From IMG/VR virus record IMGVR_UViG_3300045256_000094: a stretch of DNA of 13,975 bases; one strand, 5' to 3'. The position numbers and the translations under genes are program-made. The notes under the pieces were generated by a model. The model worked only from the letters and a program-made list of their open reading frames with translations, did no database searches and was not told the DNA's origin. This stretch comes from a virus. Positions 937 to 13,975 of this stretch are shown here, in pieces. Position 1 is the first letter of the stretch. Every line of letters starts with the position of its first letter.

Positions 937-1665
937 TCAGATCATGCTGACCTGGAACGGCTCGATGGTCCGCCCCCGGTAGAAGGTGAAGTATTTGTTC
1001 TCGTCGTTCATCTCGATGTCGAGGAACTGTTCGAACTCCTGCTTGGTACGGTCGTCGGTGGTCAGGCGGGAGAAGTCCCAATACCAGACCTGCCGGTGCG
1101 TCAGTTCGTTCTCCGTGACCTTGCCGTCCCCGTTCTCGTCCCGCATGGACGTGACCGTGGCCCCGTAGGCGTCTTTGGCGTCGTTCTTCCGCCAGAACTT
1201 CCACGGCTCGGGAAGCTTGTTGCCGTCGTCGTCCTCGTTGATCCAGAACTCGCCGGACGGGTCGCCCAGAATCTTCTCGTGGAAGTGCTGGTCGTACTCC
1301 ATCTCGTAGTAGAGCTTGTACATGCGGAACTCGAACCCGCCCTCCACGTCGTCGTTCGGGATCGCCCGTAGCCGAAGCCGGAGGGGCTTGGACGAGCCGA
1401 GCAGGACGCCCCGCAGGCAGTAGTCGGTGGAGAAGAACTTCTTCCGGCCGACTTCCGTCTGGTAGACCTCGATCTTGTCCACGAAGAAGTTGATCCCGCT
1501 GAACTCCAGGTCGCTGCTGATCGAGACGCTGACCCCGATCTTAGCCTTCAGCGGGTTGTGGTACTCGAACTCCGTCGGGCCGATGACCCGCTTGTTCTTC
1601 CCCGTGAGAATCTGCCACAGCGTCCGACCCTTGCCGTCCGCACTGACCACTTTCCCTTCGGCCAT
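937..1665 (-). CDS. hypothetical protein (242 aa) with one canonical EF-hand-type calcium-binding loop
   Basis: Start trimmed to ATG 1665 (MAEGKVVSADGKG...), which is preceded by AAGGAG with a 6-nt spacer. Codons end strongly in G/C from this ATG onward. The loop DENGDGKVTENE is at 1105..1140. The longer track ORF (to 1791) adds an Arg/Thr/Pro-rich N-extension with no ribosome-binding site. Confidence 0.8.
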   Translation of the reverse strand: MAEGKVVSADGKGRTLWQILTGKNKRVIGPTEFEYHNPLKAKIGVSVSISSDLEFSGINFFVDKIEVYQTEVGRKKFFSTDYCLRGVLLGSSKPLRLRLRAIPNDDVEGGFEFRMYKLYYEMEYDQHFHEKILGDPSGEFWINEDDDGNKLPEPWKFWRKNDAKDAYGATVTSMRDENGDGKVTENELTHRQVWYWDFSRLTTDDRTKQEFEQFLDIEMNDENKYFTFYRGRTIEPFQVSMI

Positions 1666-2044
1666 TTTCGTCTCCTTCACTGAGTATGAGTCGCTTGAGC
1701 CAGTTGGTGTGCTTACCCCAGGATTTCCACACGCCTTTGGGATCACGGGTGTGCTTCGGCCGGTAAGCAAAGCCGTCGTTCCACGTCGCACAGACGATGA
1801 TCCCTGTTTGCTCCCGGAACCACTGCTCGAAGAGAGTTATCAGCAGTCCCGGCTTCCCAACACGGTATTCGTTGAACCCGGCCTCGTCTTGCAGCACATC
1901 CTCCGGTTCCCGAAGAAAGGGTGGTTGTGGGATGGCGTCTTCGTATTCGGCCCGGCGAGCGTAGTAGTTACTCAGACACTCGACCGTGACCAGATACTCG
2001 ACCCCATCAATCACCCTCGCTTCGGGAACCGGAGAAGGCGTCAT
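1541..2044 (-). CDS. hypothetical protein (167 aa); its 3' end overlaps the next gene by 125 nt
   Basis: ATG 2044 is preceded by GGGAG (5-nt spacer) and lies 1 nt after the stop of the upstream gene. The N-terminal two thirds have G/C-ending codons. The last ~41 codons lie out of frame inside the 937..1665 gene. Confidence 0.65.
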   Translation of the reverse strand: MTPSPVPEARVIDGVEYLVTVECLSNYYARRAEYEDAIPQPPFLREPEDVLQDEAGFNEYRVGKPGLLITLFEQWFREQTGIIVCATWNDGFAYRPKHTRDPKGVWKSWGKHTNWLKRLILSEGDENGRRESGQCGRQGSDAVADSHGEEQAGHRPDGVRVPQPAEG

Positions 2045-2045
2045 G

Positions 2046-3197
2046 TTAGCTCCCGATGCGTTTGACGAAGATCACGTTGAACAGGAAGATCGCCCCGATG
2101 ATAACAACGACCCCGAGGCAAATCCAGCCCAAGATGCTCCACGCCACGCCACCACCGCCGCTCCCGGTCGCCGGGCCGGACGTGTGGACGACCCGCACGT
2201 TCGGATTGTACACAGACTCGATGTAGTCCTGGTCGTACATCAGGGTCGGGTTGTCGTTGAACTCCGGGTCAACGTAGCCGGGGTTCCGGGCGTAGTTCTG
2301 CCGCTCCAGGGCGGCGATCCGGGCACGCACTTCGCCGTCTTGCAGCCCCCGCTCGTAGGCCGCTTGGTCAATGTTGTAGCGGTTGTGGTAGAACCAGTAC
2401 GCCCGCCGCTCCGCACTCCACTCCATCATCATGTACCAGAACGGGCTGCTGTACCCGCCACCGACGAAGATCACCGGCTGACTCTGGTAGTAGCTGTACG
2501 GGTGGCTGTAGTGGTAGTGGTGAACGTGCTTCACCGTGTAGTTGTACCGAACCTCCGGGTCCAGATCACGGCTCGGCCGGTTGCGAATCGTCTCGACGGA
2601 CGGAGCCTTCGGGTCAATCTTCACTTCCTTACCGTCCGGTGCCTTGTAGCTCGGCCGGGGCGGTGCCGTGGCCTTCGCCGTCTCCTCGTAGGTCCGCTTG
2701 CTGGCCTCTTCCCGGTTGGCCCGAGCCTTCTCGTCGTTGCTGTTCGTACCGGGCCGCTTGCTGCTGCCCGGAGGCGAAGACGGCGGCGGCGCACCCGCAC
2801 TCGGCGAACCGAACTTGCCCTTGTTGTCGTCCTTCTTGTCATCCGGCTTCTTGCTGTCGCCGCCACCACTGTTCGGCGAACCGAACTTGCCGCCACTCGG
2901 AGGCGGGGTCGTGGGTTGCTTCGGCGGATCGGCGGGCTTCTTACTGTCGCCCCCGCTGTTCGGCGAGCCGAACTTGCCGCCACTCGGAGGCGGGGTCGTG
3001 GGTTGCTTCGGCGGGTCAGGCTTCTGGCTGCTGCTACTGCCCGGCGAGCCGAACTTGCTACCGCTACCGCCGCTGCTGGCCGGAGGCGGTGAGCTTTGCC
3101 CGCCCGGCTTTTTGCTTCCGCTCTGGGCATCGGCGTAGCCGCCCAGCATCGCCATGCAGCCCATCAGGGCGATGCACAGTCCGATCCGTCGTAACAT
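2046..3197 (-). CDS. envelope protein (383 aa): signal peptide, Pro/Gly/Ser/Lys-rich tandem repeats, Tyr/His/Trp-rich domain, C-terminal TM anchor
   Basis: ATG 3197 is preceded by GGAGG with a 6-nt spacer. The N-terminus MLRRIGLCIALMGCMAMLGGYADA-QSG looks like a Sec signal peptide. There are four KFGSP-anchored repeats. The C-terminus WSILGWICLGVVVIIGAIFLFNVIF-VKRIGS is a hydrophobic helix. Confidence 0.85.
   Translation of the reverse strand: MLRRIGLCIALMGCMAMLGGYADAQSGSKKPGGQSSPPPASSGGSGSKFGSPGSSSSQKPDPPKQPTTPPPSGGKFGSPNSGGDSKKPADPPKQPTTPPPSGGKFGSPNSGGGDSKKPDDKKDDNKGKFGSPSAGAPPPSSPPGSSKRPGTNSNDEKARANREEASKRTYEETAKATAPPRPSYKAPDGKEVKIDPKAPSVETIRNRPSRDLDPEVRYNYTVKHVHHYHYSHPYSYYQSQPVIFVGGGYSSPFWYMMMEWSAERRAYWFYHNRYNIDQAAYERGLQDGEVRARIAALERQNYARNPGYVDPEFNDNPTLMYDQDYIESVYNPNVRVVHTSGPATGSGGGGVAWSILGWICLGVVVIIGAIFLFNVIFVKRIGS
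2802..3056 (-). repeat. in-frame coding tandem repeat with an 87-nt (29-aa) unit
   Basis: 2869..2927 and 2956..3014 are identical except for 1 mismatch in 59 nt, at an offset of 87 nt. At protein level the unit is KFGSPNSGGDSKKPADPPKQPTTPPPSGG, with diverged flanking copies. KFGSP occurs at residues 48, 75, 104 and 128. Confidence 0.9.
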
Positions 3198-3253: not shown

Positions 3254-4480
3254 CTAGATTCGTTCCAAGCGAAACATGCCGAGTTTCCACATTGCATTTT
3301 GCAACGTGATAAGGGCTGTGGCGATGGCGTACTTGAACCCTCGGCGACCACCTTGAATCCGCTCCCGCTCGTAAGCCGACCCCATGAGACGGGCAAGCTC
3401 GTGACAGTAGTTCGCCAGCCCGGCCACATCCTTTGACTCGACGGCGTGTTTCCACCAGTAGGTCAGGTACGAGGACATCCCGAGTAACTTCACGTCGTCG
3501 TCGGTCAGGTCGAGCGGAGCATTCGGCGTATCGGTCATGCCGTGGCAAGCCGACTGCACACGAGTCTCGGTGTAGGTAATGTACATCCCCGGCGAGTCCA
3601 CCTTCGTCCACTTTTTGACTTCAAACTTCACGTCTGAAGACCGGCTCACGGACAACAGGTTCCAAGCCAGGACGTTCCACGCCAGCTTGCGGCGTTCGGT
3701 CGGCGACTCGATGGGCGGGTCGAACCCGTCCTCGATCATCCGCATGGCGTCGTCTGCACTGAGGGCAGTGCCCTCACGAGACTTCATCTTCTTCCCATCG
3801 TCCCCCAGGACGAGGCCCATAGGTAGATGATACCGCTCCAAGCCCAGGTTGTAAAAGTGTTCCTTCTGCTCCATGCCGGTAACGTACCACAACTCCCCCT
3901 CCACCATCTTGCGGAAGGCAAGGTCGTAGTAGGCGTAAAGCGGACTCCCGTCCGCCCGCTTTAGGATCACTGGCGTGGAGGGGTGGGCGTCGTCCCACAT
4001 CCACGGCTGCTCGTGTTCTTCGAGTAGAGGACTGCCCTCTTCCTGATACGTCCGGCGATGGCACGGCACGATGTCGTCCGGCATCAGCACGTCGTAGTAA
4101 AGCTTCGGCTTATAGCCGACGAAATTACACCACCGCTCGAAGCCGGTCAGGGCGAAGCTCTTTACACCGAGCGATGCCCCCAACAGAGCAACCGGCTGGG
4201 AATACGGCAACACTCGTGAGAGCGAGTGGGCCACGGCGAGGTTCCGCAGGTGCCCGACGTGGAGAGCCTTGTTCAAATTTGGACTGAAACCGTCGATCAG
4301 CATCCCCGCACCGGGGTTGGTCGGTGCGGCCTCGGGCCACCGATAGTTTTCCGCAGTGAAGTGGTAGTTGTGGAACCACTTCTGAGGATCGTGGCGGTAG
4401 CCCTTCGCACCCTCAAGCGGCTGGTTCGTGGTCACGCCGAAACCGTGCTTCGTCGGCATCGGGCGTAGCTTCGACTCCAT
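3254..4480 (-). CDS. arginyl-tRNA synthetase-like class I aaRS paralog (408 aa), lacking the canonical N-terminal domain
   Basis: ATG 4480 is preceded by AGGAG with an 8-nt spacer. The HIGH motif sits in ArgRS context (FSPNLNKALHVGHLRN). Other ArgRS-like blocks are ILKRADGSPLYAYYDLAF, LWYVTGMEQKEHF and GDDGKKMKSREGTAL (the KMSKS/MSTR position). The helical C-terminus ending LGMFRLERI resembles the DALR anticodon-binding domain. Confidence 0.85.
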   Translation of the reverse strand: MESKLRPMPTKHGFGVTTNQPLEGAKGYRHDPQKWFHNYHFTAENYRWPEAAPTNPGAGMLIDGFSPNLNKALHVGHLRNLAVAHSLSRVLPYSQPVALLGASLGVKSFALTGFERWCNFVGYKPKLYYDVLMPDDIVPCHRRTYQEEGSPLLEEHEQPWMWDDAHPSTPVILKRADGSPLYAYYDLAFRKMVEGELWYVTGMEQKEHFYNLGLERYHLPMGLVLGDDGKKMKSREGTALSADDAMRMIEDGFDPPIESPTERRKLAWNVLAWNLLSVSRSSDVKFEVKKWTKVDSPGMYITYTETRVQSACHGMTDTPNAPLDLTDDDVKLLGMSSYLTYWWKHAVESKDVAGLANYCHELARLMGSAYERERIQGGRRGFKYAIATALITLQNAMWKLGMFRLERI

Positions 4481-4600: not shown

Positions 4601-6076
4601 ATGACAGATGTTAAGAATGTAATCAAGATAGAGAACGTCTACAGTTGGCTAATCACGGAGAACATGGGCCTCCGGGAAACGCTTTGTAAGGCTCTCAAAG
4701 TCCCCGCCAAGAACTACTGGCATTCTACCGCATACAAACGCAAGATTTGGGACGGACACATCGAGTTCTTTAAGAAGAACTCGGGCATGTTCTACTCCGG
4801 GCTTCTCCCCGAAGTCTGCGGCATCCTCTCGCACCTTAACGAACCCTACACCATCGCCGACCACCGAGGGGCGATCCAGTGGGGGCAAAAGGTCGTTGAC
4901 GAGAACTTCCTTCAGCAGTTCCAGAAGAAGGGCAGCAAGCCGCTCACCCTCTACGACTACCAAGTGGAGTACGTCAACCTCGCCCTGAAGTACGGCCGGG
5001 GCGTCATCACCGCCCCCACGGGTGCCGGTAAGACGAACGTCCTGATCTCGATCCTGAAGTGCCTGCCGCCCAAGACGCCGGTCCTCTTCATGACGAAGGG
5101 TGCGGGTCTGGTCGATCAGAACTACGCCGAGATGCTTCAGTGGGGCGTGCCGAACCTGGGCCGCTACTACGGGAAGTACAAAGAGCCGAACTACGTCATG
5201 TGCTGCACCATCCACCAGGACACGCTCAAGAGCATCGACAAGCTCTTGCCGAAGTTCAAGGTGCTGATCGTGGACGAGGTTCACGAAGCCATGAGCGACA
5301 CGCCCATCGCCGCCTACAAGAAGATGAAGGAGGCGACGTACCGCTTCGGGTTCTCGGCCACCCCGTTCAAGTACACGTCGAAGGACAACAAGGGCAACGA
5401 GATTTCGAAAGATAAGGAACACAAGTACAACGTCAAGGCTCACTTCGGGGCCAACTTCAAGCTGTCCTGCACGCCGTCGGGCAAGCTGACGACGAAAGAC
5501 TTGCAGGAGCGGGGCATCCTGTCGCCGAGCCGCTGCACGATTTACCCGATCAACGAGCCGGACAACATCCAGCACGAGCCGTATGGGGACGCTGTTACTC
5601 TTGGCATCTCCAACAACATGTACTTCCACCAAGTCATCATGCGACTGGCCCGGAAGCTGGAGGGGCGCACCCTCATCATGGTGGAACGGATCGACCAGGG
5701 GAACTACCTCAAGTCCCTGATCCCCGAGGCACACTGGATCAAGGGCGACGTGGCGGTTGGCGACCGGGCCACGATCTTCGGCGAGTTGAAGTACAGCGGT
5801 GAGAAGGTGATCTGTATCGCTATGCGACAGATCGTCACCGCCGGTATCAACGTGTTCGTCCACAACCTGATTAACGCATCAGGCGGCAACGCCGAACACA
5901 ACATCATTCAGCAGATGGGTCGTGGGCTGCGGTCCGCCTCAGACAAGAACGTGCTGGACTTCTACGACTTCCTGTTCACCACCAACGCCTACCTGCGTGA
6001 CCACTCCCTGAACCGCATCCGGGTTCTGGAGAGCGAGGGCCACGAGATCACCGTCAAAGAGAAGATCGACTTCTAA
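4601..6076 (+). CDS. SF2 DNA helicase, UvsW-like (DEAD/DEAH-box, ResIII-type)
   Basis: Motif I is ITAPTGAGKT, motif II LIVDEVHEA, motif III FGFSATP, motif VI QQMGRGLR. The N-terminal segment KIWDGHIEFFKKNSGMFYSGLLPEV resembles the T4 UvsW N-domain (WDGRIRLL...LPFGLV), recalled from memory. Confidence 0.9.
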   Translation: MTDVKNVIKIENVYSWLITENMGLRETLCKALKVPAKNYWHSTAYKRKIWDGHIEFFKKNSGMFYSGLLPEVCGILSHLNEPYTIADHRGAIQWGQKVVDENFLQQFQKKGSKPLTLYDYQVEYVNLALKYGRGVITAPTGAGKTNVLISILKCLPPKTPVLFMTKGAGLVDQNYAEMLQWGVPNLGRYYGKYKEPNYVMCCTIHQDTLKSIDKLLPKFKVLIVDEVHEAMSDTPIAAYKKMKEATYRFGFSATPFKYTSKDNKGNEISKDKEHKYNVKAHFGANFKLSCTPSGKLTTKDLQERGILSPSRCTIYPINEPDNIQHEPYGDAVTLGISNNMYFHQVIMRLARKLEGRTLIMVERIDQGNYLKSLIPEAHWIKGDVAVGDRATIFGELKYSGEKVICIAMRQIVTAGINVFVHNLINASGGNAEHNIIQQMGRGLRSASDKNVLDFYDFLFTTNAYLRDHSLNRIRVLESEGHEITVKEKIDF

Positions 6077-6816
6077 TACCCACAACTCCAGGTCTTGCCG
6101 TTCCAGGTCAAGCCCTCGGTGTTGTGGGTTCCCGCCCGCAGCTTTTCAAGTCGCTGGCCGATGATCTCGTACCGCTTCCTGAAGTTAAACAACGCACCCT
6201 CGTCGATCCCCGGCACGAACAGGGCAGAGATGCCGCCGTAGTGGTACACCTTCTCGAACAACTGCGGGTATTCCACAACATCGTAGCCGAGCAACTGAGC
6301 GGCGAGGTACACCATCGCCCCGCCGTCGAAGTATTGCTTGAACGGGATGTTCATGTACGGTGCCCACGAGAAGTGTTGCGTAATCTTCCTGATCTTCGCC
6401 GTGTTGAACAGGGCGAACGAGTGGTCGATCTTCTTCTGCCCACGGAGCGGGTATCCGGCGAACGTACACTCGCCCGTCGTGTGCGTGTCGGCCACGCACA
6501 GGGCGTTCTCCGTCATCTTGGACATCAACTCTGGGACGATTGGGCCGAGGACTTCCACGTCGCTGTCCACCGTCAGCAGGTACTCCGTGTCCACGGCACG
6601 CATGAGCGTGTCGAGGTTGCTACCGAAGTTGCACTGCTCGGTGTTCTGGATGAAGAAGTTGGCGTGACTTGCTGCGTAAGCGTTAGCACCATCCGAACTG
6701 GCGTCGTCGATGACGACCCACTTATAGTTCGGATGGTACTTGGAGAACGACTCCCACATGAGAGCGAGAGCCGTTGCGGTGTTCCTGACGGTGGTGACTA
6801 CTGTGACATTATCCAT
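6073..6816 (-). CDS. GT-A fold glycosyltransferase (family 2-like), soluble, 247 aa
   Basis: The N-terminus VTVVTTVRNTATALALMWESFSKYHPNYKWVVIDDASSDG is a typical GT2 opening. The DxD motif is in LTVDSDVEV. No TM segments. No clear SD before ATG 6816, which lies 12 nt after the HNH stop. Confidence 0.75.
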   Translation of the reverse strand: MDNVTVVTTVRNTATALALMWESFSKYHPNYKWVVIDDASSDGANAYAASHANFFIQNTEQCNFGSNLDTLMRAVDTEYLLTVDSDVEVLGPIVPELMSKMTENALCVADTHTTGECTFAGYPLRGQKKIDHSFALFNTAKIRKITQHFSWAPYMNIPFKQYFDGGAMVYLAAQLLGYDVVEYPQLFEKVYHYGGISALFVPGIDEGALFNFRKRYEIIGQRLEKLRAGTHNTEGLTWNGKTWSCGY

Positions 6817-6828
6817 GCCATAGAGTAG

Positions 6829-7605
6829 TCACGCCACGGCGTAGTCTTCGCAGAACTTACGGTCCACCCGCCAGTAGTCGGGCATGAACTTCGGCTTCAT
6901 CGTGTCGAGGAAGTGCTGCCTCCAGAACTTAGCGAACTCGTCGAAGTCCTTCACCTGGGCCATCACCTGCGCACCGAACCCCTGCCCCGAAGACGGAGGC
7001 TTGGGCTTCAGCTTCGCCAGTTCTTTGATCTCGGCGTCCGTTGGGACGTGCCCCAGGGCTTCCTGCAACAACAGCTTCATCACCACGATCCGGCCCGGCG
7101 GAATCTTGTCGCCGTGTTCCGTCAGTGAACGGGCCAGCCCCCGGACGTACATCTCGTCCCGGAAGTTCTCCTTCATCCCCGAAAGCGGGATGCCATACAA
7201 CTCCGAGAAGTGCTTCCGCTTCTTCTGCGACTCCTCTTCGTACTTGGTGTGGCACGAGGTACAGGTCGGCAGAACGTCGTGGCTGTTGTGCTTCTTGTGT
7301 GAGTTCGGCATGTGCCGCAGGAACGACCACGGCACGACATGGTGCCGGTTCAGGTCTTCCGTGGCCCCGCAGACGACGCAGTGGTTCGGCTTGGGCAACA
7401 GCGTCCAGGGGTCTTTCATCCCCCGACGGCCGCTCGGCTCGAACTTCAGCTTGATGGTGATCGGGTCGTCGGCCACCTTGTCGGCCAGCCCACGCTCCAA
7501 ATACCAGTCGATCCGCTTCTTCTCGCACCGGCCGGTAGGTTGGCCGTCCGGTGCGAGGATCAAGCAGTTGTCAAACAGAACTTGAGTGGCTGCGTTGTTT
7601 GGCAT
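6829..7605 (-). CDS. HNH-motif nuclease (258 aa) with extra N- and C-terminal regions
   Basis: CVVCGATEDLNRHHVVPWSFL...HNSHDVLPTCTSCHTKYE fits the CxxC...HH...N...CxxCH pattern of an HNH / His-Me finger. Confidence 0.75.
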   Translation of the reverse strand: MPNNAATQVLFDNCLILAPDGQPTGRCEKKRIDWYLERGLADKVADDPITIKLKFEPSGRRGMKDPWTLLPKPNHCVVCGATEDLNRHHVVPWSFLRHMPNSHKKHNSHDVLPTCTSCHTKYEEESQKKRKHFSELYGIPLSGMKENFRDEMYVRGLARSLTEHGDKIPPGRIVVMKLLLQEALGHVPTDAEIKELAKLKPKPPSSGQGFGAQVMAQVKDFDEFAKFWRQHFLDTMKPKFMPDYWRVDRKFCEDYAVA

Positions 7606-7611
7606 ACTCCA

Positions 7612-9318
7612 TTATACCTTGAGTTCAAGGGCGTCCATTTCCTTTTTGAACTTCGCCGGGTCGGCCTTGAACCACTCGGGTAGCAGGCTTCGCCGGGTGC
7701 AGTTCACAAGGGCTTGGAGGGTCTGGTAGCGACGGGTGTCGCCGATGTTCGGGTCGATCATGTCGTCCAGCACGGCCAGGGCGTCCTGATACGTCTTCAC
7801 CTTCTTCGCCTTCAGGCGACTCCTCAGTGAAGCGTAGGACGCCGCCGAGTAGTCCTTCGTGACTTCGACCAACTTCTGCATCTCGCCTTCGTTCAGGTCG
7901 ATCCCGACCGGCTTCATCATCCAGTGGATGAAGTCCTTCTGGTCTTCGCCTTCCGGGTCGAGGATCGGAATGATGAGATCGCCCACCCGCCCCGGACGCC
8001 GGATGTCGGCACTGAGGAGGTTGATCCGGGCCGTCATGAGCAGCCACACGATCTTACCCTTCAGGCGGGGGTCGGACATCATCGCCTGAATCTTGCCGGT
8101 CAGCCGCCGCTCCGTCTCGTGCGTATCTGCCCCGACGCCGCCGAACTGAGTGTCGGCCTCATCAACGAAGATGGCGAGCCGGTCCAGGGCTTCGGCCACC
8201 CGGCGGATTCGCTCGAAGGTCACGTCCGTCTGGCCGAACCACTGGCTGCGGAGGTTCTTCAACACCATCACCGGCATGTCCAACTCGGTGACGGCTGCCT
8301 CCATGATGAACGTCTTACCGCCGCCGATGGGACCGCCGATGGCGGCACCGGCCAGGGCTTCGTCCCCGCCCGCCTTGATCCGGGGGATGAACTCGTCCCG
8401 GAGGAACTTCTTGATCTGGCGGAAGCCCACCACGTCGTCGAGCCGGTGGTTCGGCTTCTTGAACTCCACCACGTCTTCACCAATCTGAGACGTGATGAAC
8501 TCGGCCACCTTGTCCACCACGTCGGCGACGGTGATGCCTTCGCCGTCGCAAAGCAGTTGGCGGTAGCCGTGCAGCGACAGCCCGGCCGTCATCTCGTCGA
8601 TACGGTCGAGCGTCTTGAGGTTCGGGAACACCGTCGTGCGGAACTGCCGCCGCTCCTCGACGTTCGGGCTGGAGATTTGGACTTCCAGCAGTTGCGGAAG
8701 TTGGGCGATAGATGAGTTAATCAACCCACGGGTTTCCGCCATGAAGATCACGCTGTCGTGACCGTTCATGAACTTCGGGTCGCTGAGCCAGTCCTGCACC
8801 ACGGCGATGCGCCGCCGGTCGGCCCAGCCCAGGGTCGCCGTCTGGCCGACGGGCAGGAGGAAGTCCGCCGCCTCAATCACGATGACGAGATCGTTCTTCA
8901 GCTTCATCTTGCGGCCGACCAGGGCGAGTTGCCGCAGGAACTCCATCGCCAGGGTCGGGTTCTCGACGGTCTGTCCGATCAGCGTGTCGAAGTCGTTGGG
9001 GTTCGGGGCGGTTTCCTTCTGTCGGGCCAGGGACGTGACCTGCCGCCGGGGGTTGATGCCCTTGAACTCGTTGAAGGCGTTGCGGAGTTCGTCTTCGTTG
9101 TTGACCACCCGGACAGCCCGGTTGATCTCGTACACCACGACGGTGACGCCCCGGTTCGTCTCGGTGGCGGCGATCTGGCACTTCGTCGCAAGGTAGTCCA
9201 CTAGCGGGACGCACTCCTTGCCGTCGAAGAACAAGTCGTTGATGTTGCCAGTCAGCAACACGGACCGACTCTTGCCGTTGTTGATGATCTTGGCGAGCTT
9301 CGGGTAGAACTCCAGCAT
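7612..9318 (-). CDS. two-domain AAA+ ATPase (568 aa): degenerate N-terminal AAA-like domain plus a classical AAA C-terminal domain
   Basis: Walker A is GGPIGGGKT (8311..8337) and Walker B is LAIFVDEAD. The second region of homology is LLMTARINLLSADIRRPGRVGDLI, as in the classical AAA clade (RPGRFD). The N-half has LLTGNINDLF and VIVIEAADF where Walker A and B would sit, both degenerate. Confidence 0.85.
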   Translation of the reverse strand: MLEFYPKLAKIINNGKSRSVLLTGNINDLFFDGKECVPLVDYLATKCQIAATETNRGVTVVVYEINRAVRVVNNEDELRNAFNEFKGINPRRQVTSLARQKETAPNPNDFDTLIGQTVENPTLAMEFLRQLALVGRKMKLKNDLVIVIEAADFLLPVGQTATLGWADRRRIAVVQDWLSDPKFMNGHDSVIFMAETRGLINSSIAQLPQLLEVQISSPNVEERRQFRTTVFPNLKTLDRIDEMTAGLSLHGYRQLLCDGEGITVADVVDKVAEFITSQIGEDVVEFKKPNHRLDDVVGFRQIKKFLRDEFIPRIKAGGDEALAGAAIGGPIGGGKTFIMEAAVTELDMPVMVLKNLRSQWFGQTDVTFERIRRVAEALDRLAIFVDEADTQFGGVGADTHETERRLTGKIQAMMSDPRLKGKIVWLLMTARINLLSADIRRPGRVGDLIIPILDPEGEDQKDFIHWMMKPVGIDLNEGEMQKLVEVTKDYSAASYASLRSRLKAKKVKTYQDALAVLDDMIDPNIGDTRRYQTLQALVNCTRRSLLPEWFKADPAKFKKEMDALELKV

Positions 9319-9602
9319 TACTCTTCTTCCTCGTCTTGGGCGTTCACCACGATGTCGTAAGCCCGATTGATGAGCTTATCGACGTGTTCGGGAACAGCCG
9401 GGCCATTGGAACACAACTCGCCGCAGACACAATCGCCGTTCCGCATAACCTCCATGTTCACGAGGCCGGTGCGGAGGATTTCGACATCAAACGAGCAGCC
9501 GAGTTTGACGAGTTCGGTTGCCTTCGTTTCGATCTCAACGGGCCGCTCGATGTCCATCGGACGGCGTTCGCCGTTGGGCAGTAGGTATTGCGTGAACCTC
9601 AC
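9318..9602 (-). CDS. hypothetical small protein (94 aa), four Cys, acidic DEEEE tail
   Basis: GTG start at 9602 is preceded by GAGGAAG and overlaps the upstream stop (GTGA). Its stop overlaps the AAA+ ATG (TAATG). Cys residues at 36, 58, 60 and 64 (C-x21-CxCxxxC). Confidence 0.6.
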   Translation of the reverse strand: MRFTQYLLPNGERRPMDIERPVEIETKATELVKLGCSFDVEILRTGLVNMEVMRNGDCVCGELCSNGPAVPEHVDKLINRAYDIVVNAQDEEEE

Positions 9603-9715
9603 GTCTCTTCCTCTTTGACTGATTGGTAGGCGTACCAGGGAACGAGCAGCAGGATCAAGATCGTGTAGAAGTACAGTGCCAGCATGTTCGTGAAGAACTT
9701 CCCGATCTTGACCAT
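9599..9715 (-). CDS. 38-aa single-pass membrane micropeptide (below the ORF-track size cutoff)
   Basis: ATG 9715 is preceded by TAAGGAGAG with a 4-nt spacer (TAAC). Translation is MVKIGKFFTNMLALYFYTILILLLVPWYAYQSVKEEET. The hydrophobic core is about 20 aa. Its stop TGA overlaps the GTG start of the next gene. Confidence 0.6.
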   Translation of the reverse strand: MVKIGKFFTNMLALYFYTILILLLVPWYAYQSVKEEET

Positions 9716-9725
9716 GTTACTCTCC

Positions 9726-9968
9726 TTACTTGGCGTGCTTGCCGTTCACCTTCGGGCAGACGGCGAACCGCTGGTTCATTTCGTCATGGAGGACGAGGTA
9801 TTCAACCCCGTCGATCATCACCGTCTCGACCTTGATGGTGCTGTTGCTGCCCTGAATCCGAAGCTCGGTCGCCTTGCCGTCATGCTCGATGACCTTTGTT
9901 TCCTGGTTACGGCACCCGCAGAGTACCAGGGCGGCGGCGACGGTAAAGGCGGTCAGTAGTCGCTTCAT
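9726..9968 (-). CDS. small lipoprotein (80 aa)
   Basis: MKRLLTAFTVAAALVLCGC has a signal peptide and a lipobox-like L-C-G-C or L-V-L-C. GAGGAG lies 5 nt upstream. ATG 9968 overlaps the upstream stop (ATGA). Confidence 0.7.
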   Translation of the reverse strand: MKRLLTAFTVAAALVLCGCRNQETKVIEHDGKATELRIQGSNSTIKVETVMIDGVEYLVLHDEMNQRFAVCPKVNGKHAK

Positions 9969-10324
9969 TTCTTCTCCTCGTTGTTCGCTTTCACTTGCTC
10001 GTAGCGGATGTCCACCCTGATCCGTTGGTAGATGGACATGTAGAGAACGGCCGAGGCCCAGGTTACGCCGTGGGCCAGCACATACCCCCGCCAGTCATCA
10101 TACCACACCTGATGGCGGAATACGAGCATCATCAGGAGCGTGAACCAGAACGAGAAGCAGTATTCGCAGGTCGGGATGTAGCACACCTTCCGTACCAAAT
10201 ACGGGAGGGTGTGATCCTTGCACCACGGCTGGAAGTAGTTCTTCCGCAGGTCGCTGAAGACTTCTTCCTTCGTGGCAGCCCACGAGAACACCGCCACCAT
10301 CGCCCCGATGATGATCGCTTCCAT
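9965..10324 (-). CDS. three-TM membrane protein (119 aa), possibly DUF1360-like
   Basis: Start trimmed to ATG 10324 (MEAIIIGAMVAVFSW...), which overlaps the Pnkp-like stop (TAATG). The Cys-bearing TM segment IPTCEYCFSFWFTLLMMLVF recalls the C-x-W-C-x-S-x-W helix of DUF1360; this is from memory and unverified. Confidence 0.65.
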   Translation of the reverse strand: MEAIIIGAMVAVFSWAATKEEVFSDLRKNYFQPWCKDHTLPYLVRKVCYIPTCEYCFSFWFTLLMMLVFRHQVWYDDWRGYVLAHGVTWASAVLYMSIYQRIRVDIRYEQVKANNEEKK

Positions 10325-11271
10325 TAGTTGAAGAACTCCTCGGTGTGCATGTACTTGAACCCGCACCGGGCAGCAGCCGTCTCGTCCGTCTTCTGGTCCC
10401 CGACGAACAAGCACTTCGCCGGGTTCAGCTTGTACGTCTCGATCATCAGTGCCCCGATACCGGGGTGCGGCTTCCGGCAGTAGCAGTTTACCGGCGGGAT
10501 GTTATGAGGACAGAAGAAAAATGGAATATCCATCCCCAGCAGGGCGTTCGTCTTCTTGAACGCCTTGATGACGTTCTCCTCGGTGCAATGCTTCTTGGCG
10601 ATCCCGCTCTGGTTCGACCAACCGAGAACGTGATCCGGCTTGAAGTCGTCGATGTACTTCTTGATCCGCTCGGCACGCCCCGGCAGCAGGACGACTTCCT
10701 CCTCGCACGTCGGGAAGTCGAACTTCGACCCGGCGGGCGTGTCCCGGAGGTTGCCGTCGTAGTCGAGGATCAGTGCGCTGTTCTTGTACTCCGGCCCCCA
10801 GACCCGCTTGAAGTCCCGCTCAACCACGCTGGAGAACCCCTCGCCGGTGCGGGGCTTTTCGAACAGCTTTCGGTAGTTGAACAACGCCACCGGCGGGAAG
10901 TGGTTCGGGTTCTTGGTCGTCTTGAAATCCTCGGGCATGAGGAGCTTGCCTGTTTGGCGGATCATCCGCAGACAGGCGTTGAGTTGTGCGTCCTCGAAGC
11001 TCGTGCTGAGCCAGACGCAGTTGACCGGGATTTTGTTATCCTTCCCGACCTTGATGACCGACGCCCGGCTCTTGGCGTCCGGGTAGGTGTTGTCGAGAAT
11101 GAAGAGATTGCCGCCCTTCTTGATCCGCCGTTCGAGTTCCTGGGCCACGCCCTCCAGCGTCCCGCCCATCTCGTCCCGGTTGAGCCGGTCATACCCCTTC
11201 GCAACGTACTCCGCTGCGATGGTGGACTTGCCCGAAGCGTTGTAACCCAGAAGGACGACAATCTCGCTCAT
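10324..11271 (-). CDS. bifunctional P-loop polynucleotide-kinase-like / HAD-IIIA phosphatase (Pnkp-like, 315 aa)
   Basis: Start trimmed to ATG 11271 (GAGG 5 nt upstream). Kinase half: GYNASGKST, LNRDE and FILDNT parallel T4 Pnk GCPGSGKST, INRDD and IISDTN. Phosphatase half: LILDYDGNL (motif I), WSNQSGI (motif II), CPH...CYCRKPHPG (Zn-loop plus motif III Lys, as in GmhB/HisB-N), FVGDQKTDETAA (motif IV). Confidence 0.85.
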   Translation of the reverse strand: MSEIVVLLGYNASGKSTIAAEYVAKGYDRLNRDEMGGTLEGVAQELERRIKKGGNLFILDNTYPDAKSRASVIKVGKDNKIPVNCVWLSTSFEDAQLNACLRMIRQTGKLLMPEDFKTTKNPNHFPPVALFNYRKLFEKPRTGEGFSSVVERDFKRVWGPEYKNSALILDYDGNLRDTPAGSKFDFPTCEEEVVLLPGRAERIKKYIDDFKPDHVLGWSNQSGIAKKHCTEENVIKAFKKTNALLGMDIPFFFCPHNIPPVNCYCRKPHPGIGALMIETYKLNPAKCLFVGDQKTDETAAARCGFKYMHTEEFFN

Positions 11272-11273
11272 GA

Positions 11274-11609
11274 CTACCTCGGTTTCACTAAGTCGTAGTG
11301 GTAAGCCCGATCCGTCTCCACACCGTCTTCGGACAGCCCGATGCCGGGTTTCGGCATCTTGTACTTGGCGTCCTTCTCGTACTTCGTCTTCGTGTTGAAG
11401 TAGAAGTGGCGTGTCTCCACGCCTTCCTGAACCTTGAAGTGGATGACGACCTTTTCGGGCATCCACCCGTTGACGACCGGGACTTTGAAGTCCAGGCCGT
11501 CAACCTTCACATACTCCACCGAGTCGATCTCGCTGTCCAGGTGGTAACTTGACTGCGGGTTTGACACCACCCCCAATGTGAGGGCCAGGGTCAAGAGCAT
11601 TCCTTGCAT
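11274..11609 (-). CDS. small secreted protein (111 aa), unknown function
   Basis: Start trimmed to ATG 11609, with AGGAG in the 11-nt gap after the ABC ATPase stop. N-terminus MQGMLLTLALTLGVVSNPQSS looks like a signal peptide. The stop lies 2 nt before the Pnkp-like ATG. Confidence 0.7.
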   Translation of the reverse strand: MQGMLLTLALTLGVVSNPQSSYHLDSEIDSVEYVKVDGLDFKVPVVNGWMPEKVVIHFKVQEGVETRHFYFNTKTKYEKDAKYKMPKPGIGLSEDGVETDRAYHYDLVKPR

Positions 11610-11620
11610 CCTTCTCCTTG

Positions 11621-12526
11621 TTAGACAACACTGACCTTCGAGTTCCAGAAGGTTCGCCCGACTTCGGGGATGATCGTCTCGTTCTGGTCGAACACGATCT
11701 TCCTCAACTCGGCCTTCTGGTCGGCGAACCGACTGAAGTCCCTCGGGTCGTCCGGGTGAAAGACCGGAGCGGGTTGATCGTACACGATTGTGGCCCCACA
11801 TTCAACTCCCCGTTCCTTCATCGTGGGGCACGTCCAGTAGCGGCTCAGCCCAACCACCCGGTCGGCGAGGTAGAACGCCTCGTTGAGTTCGTGCGTGACG
11901 AACACCACCGTGTACGGTGGCGGCAGACCCGCCTTCTTCGCCGTCAGGTTGTCCTGGTAGAGCCGCAACAGCAGGTGTTGCAGGTCTTCACGGGTCGCCT
12001 CGTCGAGCGCACCGAACGGCTCGTCGAGCAAGAGAATCTTCGGCTTCATAATCAACGCCTGGGCGATGCTCACCCGCTGACGCTGACCACCCGATAGTTG
12101 GGTTGGGTAACAGTCCATCGACCCGTCCAGATCGAAGTCCGTCAACATCTGCTTGGCTTCAGCCCGGTACTTCCGTTTCAGGTCACGCAGCATGAACGGG
12201 CGGAACACCCGGCCGAGGAAGCTCGTTTGGTCGAGGATCGGCCCGACGGCCACGTTGTCGAGGGCGGTGAGGAACGGGAACAGGGTGTACTGCTGGTACA
12301 CGATCCCGCAGTCCCGGCTCGGCCCGATAACTTCCTTCCCGTCCACCATGATCGCCCCTTCCATCGGCGGGTCGGTGCCGAGTATGGCCCGGAGCAGGGT
12401 GGACTTGCCGCAGCCGCTCGGCCCGACCAGGGCGACGAACTGCCCGGCGTCCACGTCGAGGTTGCAGTGGTGAAGCACCCGCTTCGTCTTGAACCAGTGG
12501 TTAACGTGCGTGCAACGTAACAGCAT
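11621..12526 (-). CDS. ABC transporter ATP-binding protein, NitT/TauT (nitrate/sulfonate/taurine-type) family, with a ~50-aa C-terminal extension
   Basis: Walker A is GPSGCGKST, the Q-loop is in IVYQQYTLFP, the signature is LSGGQRQRVSIAQAL, Walker B is ILLLDEPFGALD, and the H-loop is VVFVTHE. AGGAGAAG lies upstream of ATG 12526. Confidence 0.9.
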   Translation of the reverse strand: MLLRCTHVNHWFKTKRVLHHCNLDVDAGQFVALVGPSGCGKSTLLRAILGTDPPMEGAIMVDGKEVIGPSRDCGIVYQQYTLFPFLTALDNVAVGPILDQTSFLGRVFRPFMLRDLKRKYRAEAKQMLTDFDLDGSMDCYPTQLSGGQRQRVSIAQALIMKPKILLLDEPFGALDEATREDLQHLLLRLYQDNLTAKKAGLPPPYTVVFVTHELNEAFYLADRVVGLSRYWTCPTMKERGVECGATIVYDQPAPVFHPDDPRDFSRFADQKAELRKIVFDQNETIIPEVGRTFWNSKVSVV

Positions 12527-12554
12527 CTTGCTTCTCCTGTGGTTTGGCGTTGAG

Positions 12555-13382
12555 TTACTTCCCGTTCTCGAACCACGGAGACACCTTGTCCCGCAGCTTC
12601 AGCAGCGACCAGTCGAGGACGTACCCCAGCAGGCCGAGGACGATGATGTAGTTGTACACAATGTTCATGTGGCTCATGCGGCTCTCGATCCGTAGCCGGT
12701 AGCCGATGCCCACGTTCGCACTCGCCCACTCGGCTGCGATTAGGAACACCATCGCCGGACCGACGGCCAGTCGCACCGACTCCACCACCCGTGGGAAGAT
12801 CATCCGCAGGATGACGTTCCACACTACCTCGAAGTTGCTGGCACCCAGCGTGTACGCCTTGTTCACCAACTCGTCCGGCACGTCGTACTTGGCGCTCTGG
12901 TACACGGTCATGGTCAGAGCCGGGATGATGCCGAAGGCGATCATCATCACGAACATCTTGAACTCAGTGCCGAACAGGATGAAGAACACGGCGAGCATGG
13001 CCGTCGGCGGGATTTTCGAGAAGAAACTGAGGACGGGATGGAACAGTGCCTCGATCTGGGCGAAGCACGCCATCAGTAAACCCACCAGCAGCGAGAAGGC
13101 GATACCAAGTGCCATCCCCGCCGTGTAGCGGTAGCCCGTGGCCTGCACGTCCTCCCAGAGCGGGATCGTGTGGGGCGGTGACTTGCTGGGGCTGGTGATC
13201 TCCAGCAGTCCCTTGTAGATGTCCACGACGCCCGGCATCGTGGTGTCCTTCGGGTTCTGCTCGTGCTGTCGGATCGACAGGAACTCGTAGAAGGCAAACA
13301 AGACCAGCACCGACACGATCCCGAGGACTACTTGGGTCGTCTTGGAGATGGGCTTGCGAATGACTAACTTTTTGGGTCGCAT
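12555..13382 (-). CDS. ABC transporter permease, NitT/TauT family (275 aa)
   Basis: Multi-TM protein with the EAA-loop region KAYTLGASNFEVVWNVILRMIFPRVVESVRLAVGPAMVFLIAAE, typical of SsuC/TauC/NrtB-type permeases. GGAGG lies 6 nt before ATG 13382. Confidence 0.88.
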   Translation of the reverse strand: MRPKKLVIRKPISKTTQVVLGIVSVLVLFAFYEFLSIRQHEQNPKDTTMPGVVDIYKGLLEITSPSKSPPHTIPLWEDVQATGYRYTAGMALGIAFSLLVGLLMACFAQIEALFHPVLSFFSKIPPTAMLAVFFILFGTEFKMFVMMIAFGIIPALTMTVYQSAKYDVPDELVNKAYTLGASNFEVVWNVILRMIFPRVVESVRLAVGPAMVFLIAAEWASANVGIGYRLRIESRMSHMNIVYNYIIVLGLLGYVLDWSLLKLRDKVSPWFENGK

Positions 13383-13404
13383 CGGTGTCCTCCGTGGTTA
13401 CATC

Positions 13405-13432
13405 AGTCTACCGCATCAGGGGTGGTTTGTAA
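13405..13432 (-). promoter_or_regulatory. possible promoter for the permease-to-GT2 operon
   Basis: Minus strand: TTACAA (13427..13432), 16-nt spacer, TAGACT (13405..13410), 22 nt upstream of ATG 13382 and immediately downstream of the terminator. Each hexamer matches consensus at 4 of 6 positions. Confidence 0.3.
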
Positions 13433-13442
13433 TGGGTTTGGG

Positions 13443-13474
13443 AAACAAAAACGCCACGGCTAACTGCCGTGGCG
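13443..13474 (-). terminator. Rho-independent terminator after the substrate-binding protein gene
   Basis: A perfect 9-bp stem (13452..13460 cgccacggc pairs with 13466..13474 gccgtggcg) has a 5-nt loop. On the minus strand it is followed directly by TTTTTGTTT. It lies 24 nt after the stop at 13499. Confidence 0.85.
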
Positions 13475-13498
13475 TCTGGACGATCAGTGGCAGGCCGG

Positions 13499-13975
13499 TC
13501 ACTTCTTGGCAGGCCCGGCTTCCGCCGCCTTGATCCACTTGGCGGCGTCGAAGTTCAGGTCGGCCTGTGTGTCCCCGTATCCGATGCTCGGGGTCTTGGT
13601 GACGATCCCCCGCTCGACGCAGAACTTCACGATCTCGGTCTGCGTCTTACGGAACTGCTCGTCGTAGACGATGACGCCGATCTCGTCGTCGCCGTAGAAC
13701 TTCGTCTCCTTGCAGCACTGACGCATGTCGGCGGCGTTCAGGTTGCTGAACTTGGCCCCGAGGGCGACGAACGCCTCGTCGGTCGTCAGCATCTCGTTGG
13801 CCTTGTAGAACGTCTCGATGATGCAGCAGGCCGCACGGTCCCCGCCCGGCTTGGCGAGGCTGTCGGTGCTGAACGCCACGCTGTCCACGATCTCGCCGGG
13901 GATCAGGCTGCTGTCGGCGAGCCGGTGGGCCTTGTCGTTGGTGCGGAGCGTCTGGAGGACGAACGGGTTCCACAC
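13499..13975 (-). CDS. ABC transporter periplasmic substrate-binding protein, C-terminal ~158 aa (gene continues beyond the right edge)
   Basis: The ORF is open to the window edge, so the apparent GTG start at 13975 is an edge artefact. It lies upstream of the cognate permease and ATPase. The assignment rests mostly on operon context; the sequence (..IPGEIVDSVAFSTDSL...NFDAAKWIKAAEAG) is compatible with NMT1/SsuA-like binding proteins, but I cannot verify this. Confidence 0.6.
   Translation of the reverse strand: MWNPFVLQTLRTNDKAHRLADSSLIPGEIVDSVAFSTDSLAKPGGDRAACCIIETFYKANEMLTTDEAFVALGAKFSNLNAADMRQCCKETKFYGDDEIGVIVYDEQFRKTQTEIVKFCVERGIVTKTPSIGYGDTQADLNFDAAKWIKAAEAGPAKK

Follow-up and report, generated by a model that had tools for sequence, protein, structure and literature searches.

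The DNA stretch analysed here, hereafter called the window, comprises 13,975 nucleotides of the IMG/VR virus record IMGVR_UViG_3300045256_000094 and carries on its minus strand, between the genes of a polynucleotide kinase/phosphatase (Pnkp) and an AAA+ ATPase, three small open reading frames (ORFs) of 119, 80 and 38 amino acids. The reading considered probable is that these are three real small envelope genes which evolve independently within the operon of a large phage, and not a functional three-gene cassette. A first-pass annotation, made from the letters of the window, had described the same three ORFs as coding for an integral membrane protein, a lipoprotein and a single-pass membrane peptide, and had likened the trio to holin/spanin-type or superinfection-exclusion cassettes. 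The ORFs, their minus-strand positions and coding signature, and the three predicted envelope products were confirmed; the cassette was not, since the genes have different histories, no adjacent gene has the build of an i-spanin gene and the match of the lipoprotein to the exclusion protein Cor came from its signal peptide.

Coding signature and distribution of the three small genes

A codon-usage model was trained on the large genes of the window, in which the third-position GC content is extreme (GC3 0.72-0.95), and six frames were scored for each ORF. The GC3 of the 119-aa, 80-aa and 38-aa ORFs was 0.83, 0.81 and 0.82, respectively, and the codon usage of each was positive in the called frame only; the 38-aa ORF scored +0.83 bits per codon in frame, its five other frames being negative. 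Judged from these sequence signatures, the three ORFs are real genes. In the 38-aa ORF the GC content of the first and second codon positions was low (GC1 0.41, GC2 0.23) compared with that of the third, which indicates selection for a hydrophobic product, beyond that for an open frame. This ORF had been described as unannotated and as one that standard gene callers would miss, a claim that did not hold, as it is already present in public gene calls together with its 32-aa counterpart from a related lineage.

Five related lineages were reached through homologues of the lipoprotein, giving six with the window (Table 1); L001 and L002 are identical copies of the window locus. The lipoprotein gene was found in all six lineages, always after the Pnkp gene, and in four of them its start directly overlaps the Pnkp stop codon. 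The gene of the 119-aa protein was limited to the window phage and its identical copies and was absent from L017-L026. The 38-aa ORF, hereafter also called the micro-ORF, has counterparts in L018, in which the neighbouring genes are 83-94% identical to those of the window, and in L019-L023, and is cleanly absent from L017 and L025, where 12 and 7 nt, respectively, lie between the lipoprotein stop codon and the start of the following 94-aa gene. Because the three genes are present or absent separately, they have independent histories and do not constitute a conserved cassette. L017 and L025 group together in the identity matrices, so that one gain or one loss is enough to account for the micro-ORF pattern. 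Conservation of the micro-ORF, which the first-pass annotation had proposed to examine, was thus found in part: the frame is open, hydrophobic and at the same position in L018 and in L019, L020, L022 and L023, and it is missing from the L017 and L025 lineages.

Table 1 Gene order from the Pnkp gene onwards in the window and in related lineages
Lineage	Pnkp identity	Gene order
Window, L001, L002	100%	Pnkp, 119-aa, lipoprotein, 38-aa, 94-aa, AAA+
L018	94%	Pnkp, unrelated 197-aa gene, lipoprotein, micro-ORF (cut by contig end)
L026	~89-93%	Pnkp, lipoprotein, contig end
L019-L023	79%	Pnkp, lipoprotein, 32-aa ORF, 92-aa, AAA+
L017	76%	Pnkp, lipoprotein, 94-aa, AAA+, HNH
L025	72%	Pnkp, lipoprotein, 94-aa, AAA+

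By this comparison, the ancestral conserved module consists of the Pnkp, lipoprotein, 94-aa and AAA+ genes, in which the lipoprotein is the one stable envelope component, and the best-supported account is that the two small membrane genes were added to this module at different times. By its distribution, the 119-aa gene is an accessory gene of host type that entered the Pnkp/lipoprotein junction in the window phage only. In L018 a gene coding for a 165-aa Rieske-domain protein (749-1246) is inserted between the 111-aa gene and the Pnkp gene, and a gene for a Cys-rich 197-aa protein without family match (2153-2746) between the Pnkp and lipoprotein genes; both flanks of Pnkp appear to be insertion hot spots in the relatives.

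The lipoprotein, the DUF1360-like protein and the micropeptide

The signal peptide of the 80-aa protein ends in the lipobox VLCG/C, at Cys19, and residues 9-19 match the PROSITE-type lipoprotein pattern, in agreement with the first-pass call. The lipobox cysteine is invariant in six of six homologues, occurring in the forms LCGC, FCGC, LSGC (canonical), AIGC and IFGC, and the Pfam lipid-attachment model LPAM_1 matched two of the six family members (E 9e-5). The mature domain consists of 62 amino acids, is beta-rich and ends in an invariant CPKVNGKHAK; one cysteine of the domain, C71, is invariant. It is constrained at least as strongly as Pnkp (omega 0.06-0.15), while the signal peptide diverges freely. 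When the mature domain was compared in an exhaustive HMMER search with 1.84 billion representatives, two relatives and a spurious-looking multi-repeat match to an NHL-repeat protein were obtained; two relatives in a collection of this size indicate that the lipoprotein family is specific to this phage lineage.

The motif IDGVEYLV of the lipoprotein recurs in the N-terminus of a 167-aa ORF of the window (1541-2044), and the same stretch matched NHL-type repeats ten times over in one 1,249-aa protein (P0127); the motif could be a single beta-propeller-blade-like unit or a generic beta-hairpin. In L026 (707-946) the mature lipoprotein is 56% identical to the window copy, with the adjacent Pnkp at ~89-93% and with CPKVNGKHAK kept, so that the lipoprotein seems to have been exchanged in a mosaic fashion or to have diversified rapidly. 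The signal peptide has almost certainly misled the JGI annotation, in which the window lipoprotein (P0014) is named 'ABC-type phosphate transport system substrate-binding protein'.

Three membrane helices of moderate hydrophobicity are present in the 119-aa protein. In an AlphaFold2 model built with 116 homologues (pLDDT 94, compared with pLDDT 69 for an earlier model from 13 sequences), helices were placed at residues 2-19, 54-69 and 78-118. The mean number of lysine and arginine residues in the family, 0.3 in the N-terminus, 6.8 in loop 1, 1.7 in loop 2 and 6.6 in the C-terminus, predicts an N-out/C-in topology with a CxxC at the cytoplasmic end of the second transmembrane (TM) helix, TM2. 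Residues E20, T52, C53, C56, S58 and R79 are invariant in the family, the motif being TCEYCxSFW. The protein had been introduced as a three-TM, Cys-rich one; the three helices were upheld, and the richness in cysteine was not, the invariant CxxC being accompanied by two further cysteines which are not conserved.

A single-sequence search with the 119-aa protein returned 13 relatives, located in phage-like contigs and in Pirellulales-type chromosomal contigs, and a profile search matched more than 7,751 proteins. A genome scan located members of the family on the chromosomes of at least 598 bacterial species, belonging to Acidobacteriota, Bacteroidota, Planctomycetota, Gemmatimonadota and other groups. 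Across 80 genomic loci the gene often stands alone between genes of the opposite strand and has no conserved neighbour; RpoD, CCA-adding enzyme, trehalase and G6PD are among the products encoded next to it. In two planctomycete-type contigs an AhpC/Redoxin gene lies two or three genes away (L004, 8560-9141; L005, 3783-4427), which is probably a coincidence; AhpC/Redoxin was rejected as a partner, as the arrangement was not repeated among the 80 loci. A strongly hydrophobic protein of ~70 amino acids is encoded directly before the DUF1360-like gene in L007 (6015-6227), L008 (3108-3317) and L010 (3051-3263), and in L008 and L010 a P-loop kinase (AAA_33) is encoded a few genes downstream.

DUF1360 (PF07098) was the top Pfam family for 78 of the 116 members of the 119-aa family, all below threshold (best E 8e-4), and the Pfam scan of the window protein itself gave no match. 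Alignment of the family profile with gp7 of Mycobacterium phage PG1 (PG1 gp7), itself a DUF1360 protein (E 1.5e-10), by hhalign resulted in a probability of 70% and an E value of 4e-5, with the CxxC in register. The top viral Foldseek matches of the model were likewise DUF1360 proteins, although weak ones (E 8.5e-3 to 0.4, TM-scores 0.36-0.55); higher TM-scores (0.61-0.68) were obtained with phage proteins without names, and a membrane protein of crAss001 was also among the best viral matches. No similar solved structure was found with the model, and in the literature search no function was reported for DUF1360. PG1 gp7 and the 119-aa family are both small membrane proteins in which TM1 and a loop are followed by CxxCxxxW at the start of TM2, and DUF1360 and the 119-aa family both occur in bacteria and in phages. 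They differ in the motif, which is CPWC in PG1 gp7 and TCEYCxSFW in the 119-aa family, in the longer charged loop and long C-terminal helix of the latter, and in its occurrence in Acidobacteriota, Bacteroidota and Planctomycetota. The 119-aa family thus appears to be distantly related to DUF1360. More than 7,700 TCEYCxSFW proteins, without Pfam assignment among the matches listed, are hereby tied to DUF1360 together with a high-confidence model; being both a single-copy bacterial gene and a phage accessory gene, the family is a candidate for functional study.

The holin role implied for the 119-aa protein was not supported, the family being cellular, widespread and mostly monocistronic and the gene missing from the sister phages. 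No PHROG or Pfam holin family matched the protein, the NCBIfam model holin_4 reached 13.7 bits against a cutoff of 70, and an endolysin was detected neither in the window, as already remarked in the first-pass annotation, nor among the tabulated genes of those phage-like contigs in which 119-aa homologues occur. Membership of a large cellular family argues that the protein is not a phage lysis protein. As a guess by analogy, it would act on its own, probably through metal or thiol chemistry of the CxxC at the cytoplasmic membrane face.

The 38-aa peptide (MVKIGKFFTNMLALYFYTILILLLVPWYAYQSVKEEET) contains, as first described, a single hydrophobic segment (residues 6-30, KD19 2.14, strongly hydrophobic), and its ORF has the Shine-Dalgarno sequence (SD) AAGGAG 6 nt upstream. 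The basic N-terminus (MVKIGK) and the acidic tail (KEEET) on either side of the TM core predict an N-in/C-out orientation. The partial L018 peptide (at least 23 amino acids, 48% identical to that of the window) reads MVKVGMFLKHMVLMYFYLCLTML, and the 32-aa peptide, complete in L019, L020, L022 and L023 and cut by the contig end in L021, reads MRVPRIIQIYWYLFLIALLTPYHVLTTAWERE. The three versions are alike in position, SD, topology and a Y-[FW]-Y core, and the two complete ones also share L-I-x-L-L-x-P, the wider motif being Y-[FW]-Y..L[IT].LL.P[WY]. Over 23 codons, pN and pS between the window and L018 were 0.28 and 0.62, respectively, with a pN of ~0.05 in the neighbouring genes, from which the micro-ORF is constrained and yet evolving fast. 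Hydrophobic peptides of 30-50 amino acids with one TM helix and a basic N-terminus, such as AcrZ, MgrB and MgtS of E. coli, show a fast turnover of sequence with hydrophobicity kept. The 38-aa peptide belongs to the same size class and shares the single TM helix and the basic N-terminus, and differs from them in having no sequence similarity, in being phage-encoded and in doubling as a putative coupling ORF.

In the relatives without the micro-ORF, an equivalent SD, AAGG(A/G)A, serves the 94-aa gene directly; the micro-ORF thus lies between an ancestral SD and the start of the 94-aa gene, in one sub-clade only. The spacers between lipoprotein gene and micro-ORF are 10, 8 and 9 nt in the three lineages, so that their frame relation is not conserved. 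A GTG start of the 94-aa gene was found in the window only, ATG being used in L017, L020 and L025, and in L020 a short spacer, without overlap, separates the micro-ORF from the start of the 92-aa gene (p92). An origin of the micro-ORF by duplication was rejected, as no similar DNA is present elsewhere in the window. A recent de novo origin of the micro-ORF, between an SD and the start which that SD formerly served, is more likely than its membership of a minimal spanin pair. The clean presence and absence of a TM micro-ORF at this position makes a tidy case of micro-gene turnover in phages.

Alternative readings and proposed roles

According to one alternative, the 38-aa ORF would act mainly in cis, as a coupling ORF bringing ribosomes to the 94-aa gene with its weak GTG start, and the peptide would be dispensable. 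The micro-ORF has taken over the ancestral SD, it overlaps the start of the 94-aa gene (GTGA) in the window, where alone that gene uses GTG, and it evolves fast compared with its neighbours (48% against 83-94% identity to L018). This is nevertheless unlikely, because the bias of the codon positions reflects selection for hydrophobic residues and because the TM character and the wider motif have been kept between very divergent copies, with pN below pS. Arguments can also be found for and against a spanin-type function, in which the lipoprotein, distantly related to the T4 o-spanin PseT.2, would disrupt the outer membrane at lysis together with an inner-membrane partner, either the 38-aa peptide or the product of a gene located elsewhere in the genome of 169 kb. 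In T4 the spanin genes pseT.3 and pseT.2 are located in the polynucleotide kinase operon, away from holin and endolysin (PMC6139136); the order is pseT.3 (i-spanin), pseT.2 (o-spanin), pseT.1 and pseT (Pnkp), with overlapping stops and starts, and in phage KFS-EC the PseT.2 homologue abuts pseT directly. The first-pass annotation had regarded a position inside an enzyme operon as odd for lysis genes; given the placement of the T4 spanins, this position is not evidence against a lysis role. The window lipoprotein has in common with PseT.2 that it is small, that its gene belongs to the tightly coupled operon of Pnkp and is remote from any endolysin gene, and that there is a weak, colinear similarity of the beta-hairpin core: hhalign of the mature family against nine PseT.2 homologues gave P values of 5e-4 to 8e-4 over 25-26 columns, and the score of 22.1 was reached by none of 200 column shuffles (mean 9.7, sd 2.2, max 18.3). 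In addition, C71 could form the homodimer disulfide which spanins generally need. On the other hand, the aligned stretch is a generic beta-hairpin (V.V.IDG..Y/W.V) that also matches NHL repeats and the N-terminus of another window ORF, and no spanin PHROG, including phrog_812, was found for the mature domain with HMMER. The lipoprotein lacks the C-terminal helix of PseT.2 and its two cysteines, which PseT.2 needs (PMC6139136), and it is encoded downstream of Pnkp, while the T4 spanins are encoded upstream of pseT. Nor does any adjacent gene code for a protein of i-spanin architecture, such as T4 has in PseT.3: the 38-aa peptide has at most 10 residues outside the membrane and is missing from two lineages which retain the lipoprotein, the 94-aa protein lacks a TM segment, and the 111-aa protein bears no similarity to PseT.3 and, read from its sequence, does not look helical. 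A spanin-type function is therefore held to be quite improbable. A u-spanin of the T1 gp11 type was rejected, since the lipoprotein has no C-terminal TM segment and a fusion of lipoprotein and micro-ORF is excluded by their unconserved frame relation.

A still bolder version of the spanin proposal, in which the linkage of Pnkp and lipoprotein is ancient and shared with T4 and the lipoprotein forms with the new 38-aa peptide a stripped-down spanin-like pair of new architecture, has a decidedly slim chance; if true, an outer-membrane lipoprotein and a minimal TM peptide would stand in place of a periplasm-spanning i-spanin. It is very improbable, too, that the lipoprotein works as a component of the Pnkp - 94-aa - AAA+ module, for instance as an envelope anchor or signal for a repair or anti-defence machine. 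It always lies between the Pnkp and 94-aa genes and is under purifying selection as strong as that on Pnkp, but the inner membrane would separate a periplasmic or outer-membrane lipoprotein from cytoplasmic enzymes, the difference in identity between lipoprotein and Pnkp in L026 (56% against ~89-93%) suggests independent exchange, and the phage genome LR756511.1 has Pnkp without the lipoprotein, 94-aa and AAA+ genes nearby. Least of all is to be expected that the trio acts together as a holin-plus-spanin or superinfection-exclusion complex, a reading largely refuted by the pattern of presence and absence. In its favour are the close packing of the adjacent genes, the predicted envelope location of all three products and the hydrophobic ~70-aa protein encoded before the DUF1360-like gene in three other phage-like contigs, which shows a tendency of such genes to have small membrane-protein genes around them. 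Against it, the trio as such exists only in the window phage and in L001 and L002, hundreds of bacterial species carry the 119-aa family on the chromosome, mostly as a monocistronic gene, holin_4 remained below its cutoff, and neither the window nor the gene tables of related contigs yielded an endolysin.

Independent evolution of three envelope genes is accordingly preferred to a cassette, and several points have to be set against this reading and the roles proposed with it. Only six lineages were available, mostly as short contigs, and those of L018 and L026 stop within the region or directly behind it. The TM and lipoprotein calls are based on hydropathy, a pattern rule, conservation and the AlphaFold2 model. 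Independent gain and loss may also be compatible with cooperation where the genes co-occur. The envelope or exclusion role of the lipoprotein is a guess by analogy, and the match on which exclusion might have been argued was lost: the full-length lipoprotein gave a weak match to phrog_1119, Cor (E 3e-3; 2e-4 for the best family member), as well as weak matches to Rz-like spanins, whereas with the mature domain alone both disappeared, that to Cor in five of five family members, leaving phrog_8284, of unknown function, at E 0.006-0.17. The Cor match therefore came from the signal peptide, and the assignment of the lipoprotein to Cor was rejected.

With independent evolution taken as the preferred reading, the lipoprotein is predicted to be lipidated at Cys19 and, having no Asp at position +2, to be sorted to the outer membrane. 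There it would most likely modify the envelope of the infected cell, e.g. by receptor masking or phage exclusion in the manner of Llp and Cor, and it is probably not a cause of lysis. Cor of phi80, T1 and N15 and Llp of T5 are comparable in being phage-encoded lipoproteins of ~80 amino acids outside a lysis cassette; the mature domain of the window protein gave no match to Cor. The micropeptide is expected to insert N-in/C-out into the inner membrane, and its ORF would also deliver ribosomes to the GTG start of the 94-aa gene; such a dual role, as membrane peptide and coupling ORF, is suggested by analogy and is a guess. The current understanding of lysis or exclusion systems is unchanged by these findings, the value of which lies in annotation and in leads, among them the recurrent pairing of a small lipoprotein with a polynucleotide kinase, here and in T4-like phages, which merits a wider survey.

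The gene block, the phage and further observations in the window

The minus-strand genes of the window form a block almost without gaps, within which the 119-aa, 80-aa and 38-aa genes are located (Table 2).

Table 2 Features of the gene block in the window
Feature	Position	Strand	Remarks
ABC importer genes	11621-13975	-	context
111-aa protein	11274-11609	-	context
Polynucleotide kinase/phosphatase (Pnkp)	10324-11271	-	N-terminal P-loop kinase, C-terminal HAD phosphatase
119-aa predicted integral membrane protein, probable distant DUF1360 relative	9965-10324	-	ORF, homologues and model
80-aa predicted lipoprotein precursor	9726-9968	-	lipobox and conservation
AAGGAG SD of the 38-aa ORF	9722-9727	-	overlaps lipoprotein stop codon
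38-aa predicted single-pass membrane micropeptide	9599-9715	-	ORF, coding signature and positional homologues
94-aa acidic cytoplasmic protein, no TM segment	9318-9602	-	GTG start; kept in relatives
568-aa classic-clade AAA+ ATPase (Cdc48/VAT-like domain)	7612-9318	-	conserved downstream end of module
HNH protein	6829-7605	-	context
GT2 glycosyltransferase	6073-6816	-	context

An SD precedes every start in the block, and overlaps of stop and start codons link five consecutive genes between Pnkp and AAA+, both included. The junctions of Pnkp with the 119-aa gene and of the 94-aa gene with the AAA+ gene are 1-nt overlaps (TAATG), the 119-aa and 80-aa genes overlap by ATGA, the 80-aa gene and the 38-aa ORF are separated by a 10-nt spacer, and the 38-aa stop codon overlaps the GTG start of the 94-aa gene (GTGA). 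The chaining of the trio by ATGA and GTGA overlaps, as first proposed, is therefore correct for one junction, the sole ATGA overlap inside the trio; a spacer lies at the other, and the GTGA overlap leads to the 94-aa gene outside the trio. As overlaps and SDs extend through the whole block, the tight packing is not special to the trio. Ribosomes would be handed from gene to gene by means of the overlapping stop and start codons and of SDs embedded in the preceding 3' ends. The acidic tails ..NNEEKK, ..KEEET and ..DEEEE (9965-9985, 9599-9620 and 9318-9340) coincide with the GAGGAG/GAGGAA SD of the next gene, and the Glu-rich tails of these three consecutive proteins may be a by-product of embedded ribosome-binding sites. 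Scans for promoters and terminators gave none inside the block, and neither tRNA genes nor Rfam families were found in the window. The 38-aa and 94-aa proteins had no match in Pfam, PHROG or NCBIfam, and the hydropathy (KD19) of the latter was 0.86. The 111-aa protein had been named a signal-peptide protein, which was unconvincing, its hydrophobic N-terminus being short and uncharged (KD19 0.94).

The 169-kb source contig appears, from its gene content, to belong to an uncultivated large phage related to the 'huge phages'. Its helicase matched phrog_16 (E 5e-59) and is 44% identical to a gene product of the 595-kb uncultured phage LR756511.1, to the Pnkp of which the window Pnkp is 56% identical; in LR756511.1 the Pnkp gene is followed by an unrelated Zn-ribbon gene and a gene for a 59-aa protein with two TM segments. 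Among 50,697 isolated phage genomes, nothing was found at the DNA or protein level with the DNA of the region or with the AAA+, 119-aa and lipoprotein sequences. The same was true of IMG/VR scans with the AAA+ protein and the lipoprotein alignment, and the DUF1360-like alignment retrieved two distant contigs only. The relatives of the AAA+ protein retrieved by a metagenome scan were all distant (42-50% identical) and stood in unrelated contexts, of no use for synteny.

The ABC importer operon upstream of the 111-aa gene comprises a fragment of the substrate-binding protein gene and the genes of a permease (12555-13382) and an ATPase (11621-12526), with a strong hairpin followed by a T-run at 13477-13449, between the binding-protein and permease genes. 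The same ATPase C-terminus is encoded directly upstream of the 111-aa homologue in L018, which makes the transporter look like a stable auxiliary gene set of the phage lineage. At 3254-4480 (minus strand) a 408-aa ArgRS-like protein is encoded that has the motifs HVGH and KMKS, falls well short of bacterial ArgRS in length and scored 78 bits against an argS cutoff of 262, perhaps a phage aminoacyl-tRNA synthetase which is truncated or has diverged. The 167-aa ORF mentioned above (minus strand) overlaps the next gene (937-1791, minus strand, probable ATG at 1665) by ~125 nt, and its GC3 periodicity is lost after about codon 118; such a tail suggests unselected read-through, a frameshift or a problem of assembly. 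The neighbouring gene at 2046-3197 (minus strand) codes for a 383-aa protein without family match, which has a Sec-type signal peptide (..YADA/Q), a C-terminal TM anchor and four KFGSP motifs, including two 22-aa repeats rich in Pro, Ser and Gly, and is a candidate for a large envelope-spanning protein. In L015 and L016, distant relatives of the AAA+ protein (42-48% identical) are encoded downstream of a 274-aa gene (L015, 1103-1927; L016, 2436-3260) which, read from its sequence, looks like PspA/IM30, with a 557-aa gene between the two, and the AAA+ family may be linked to membrane remodelling.

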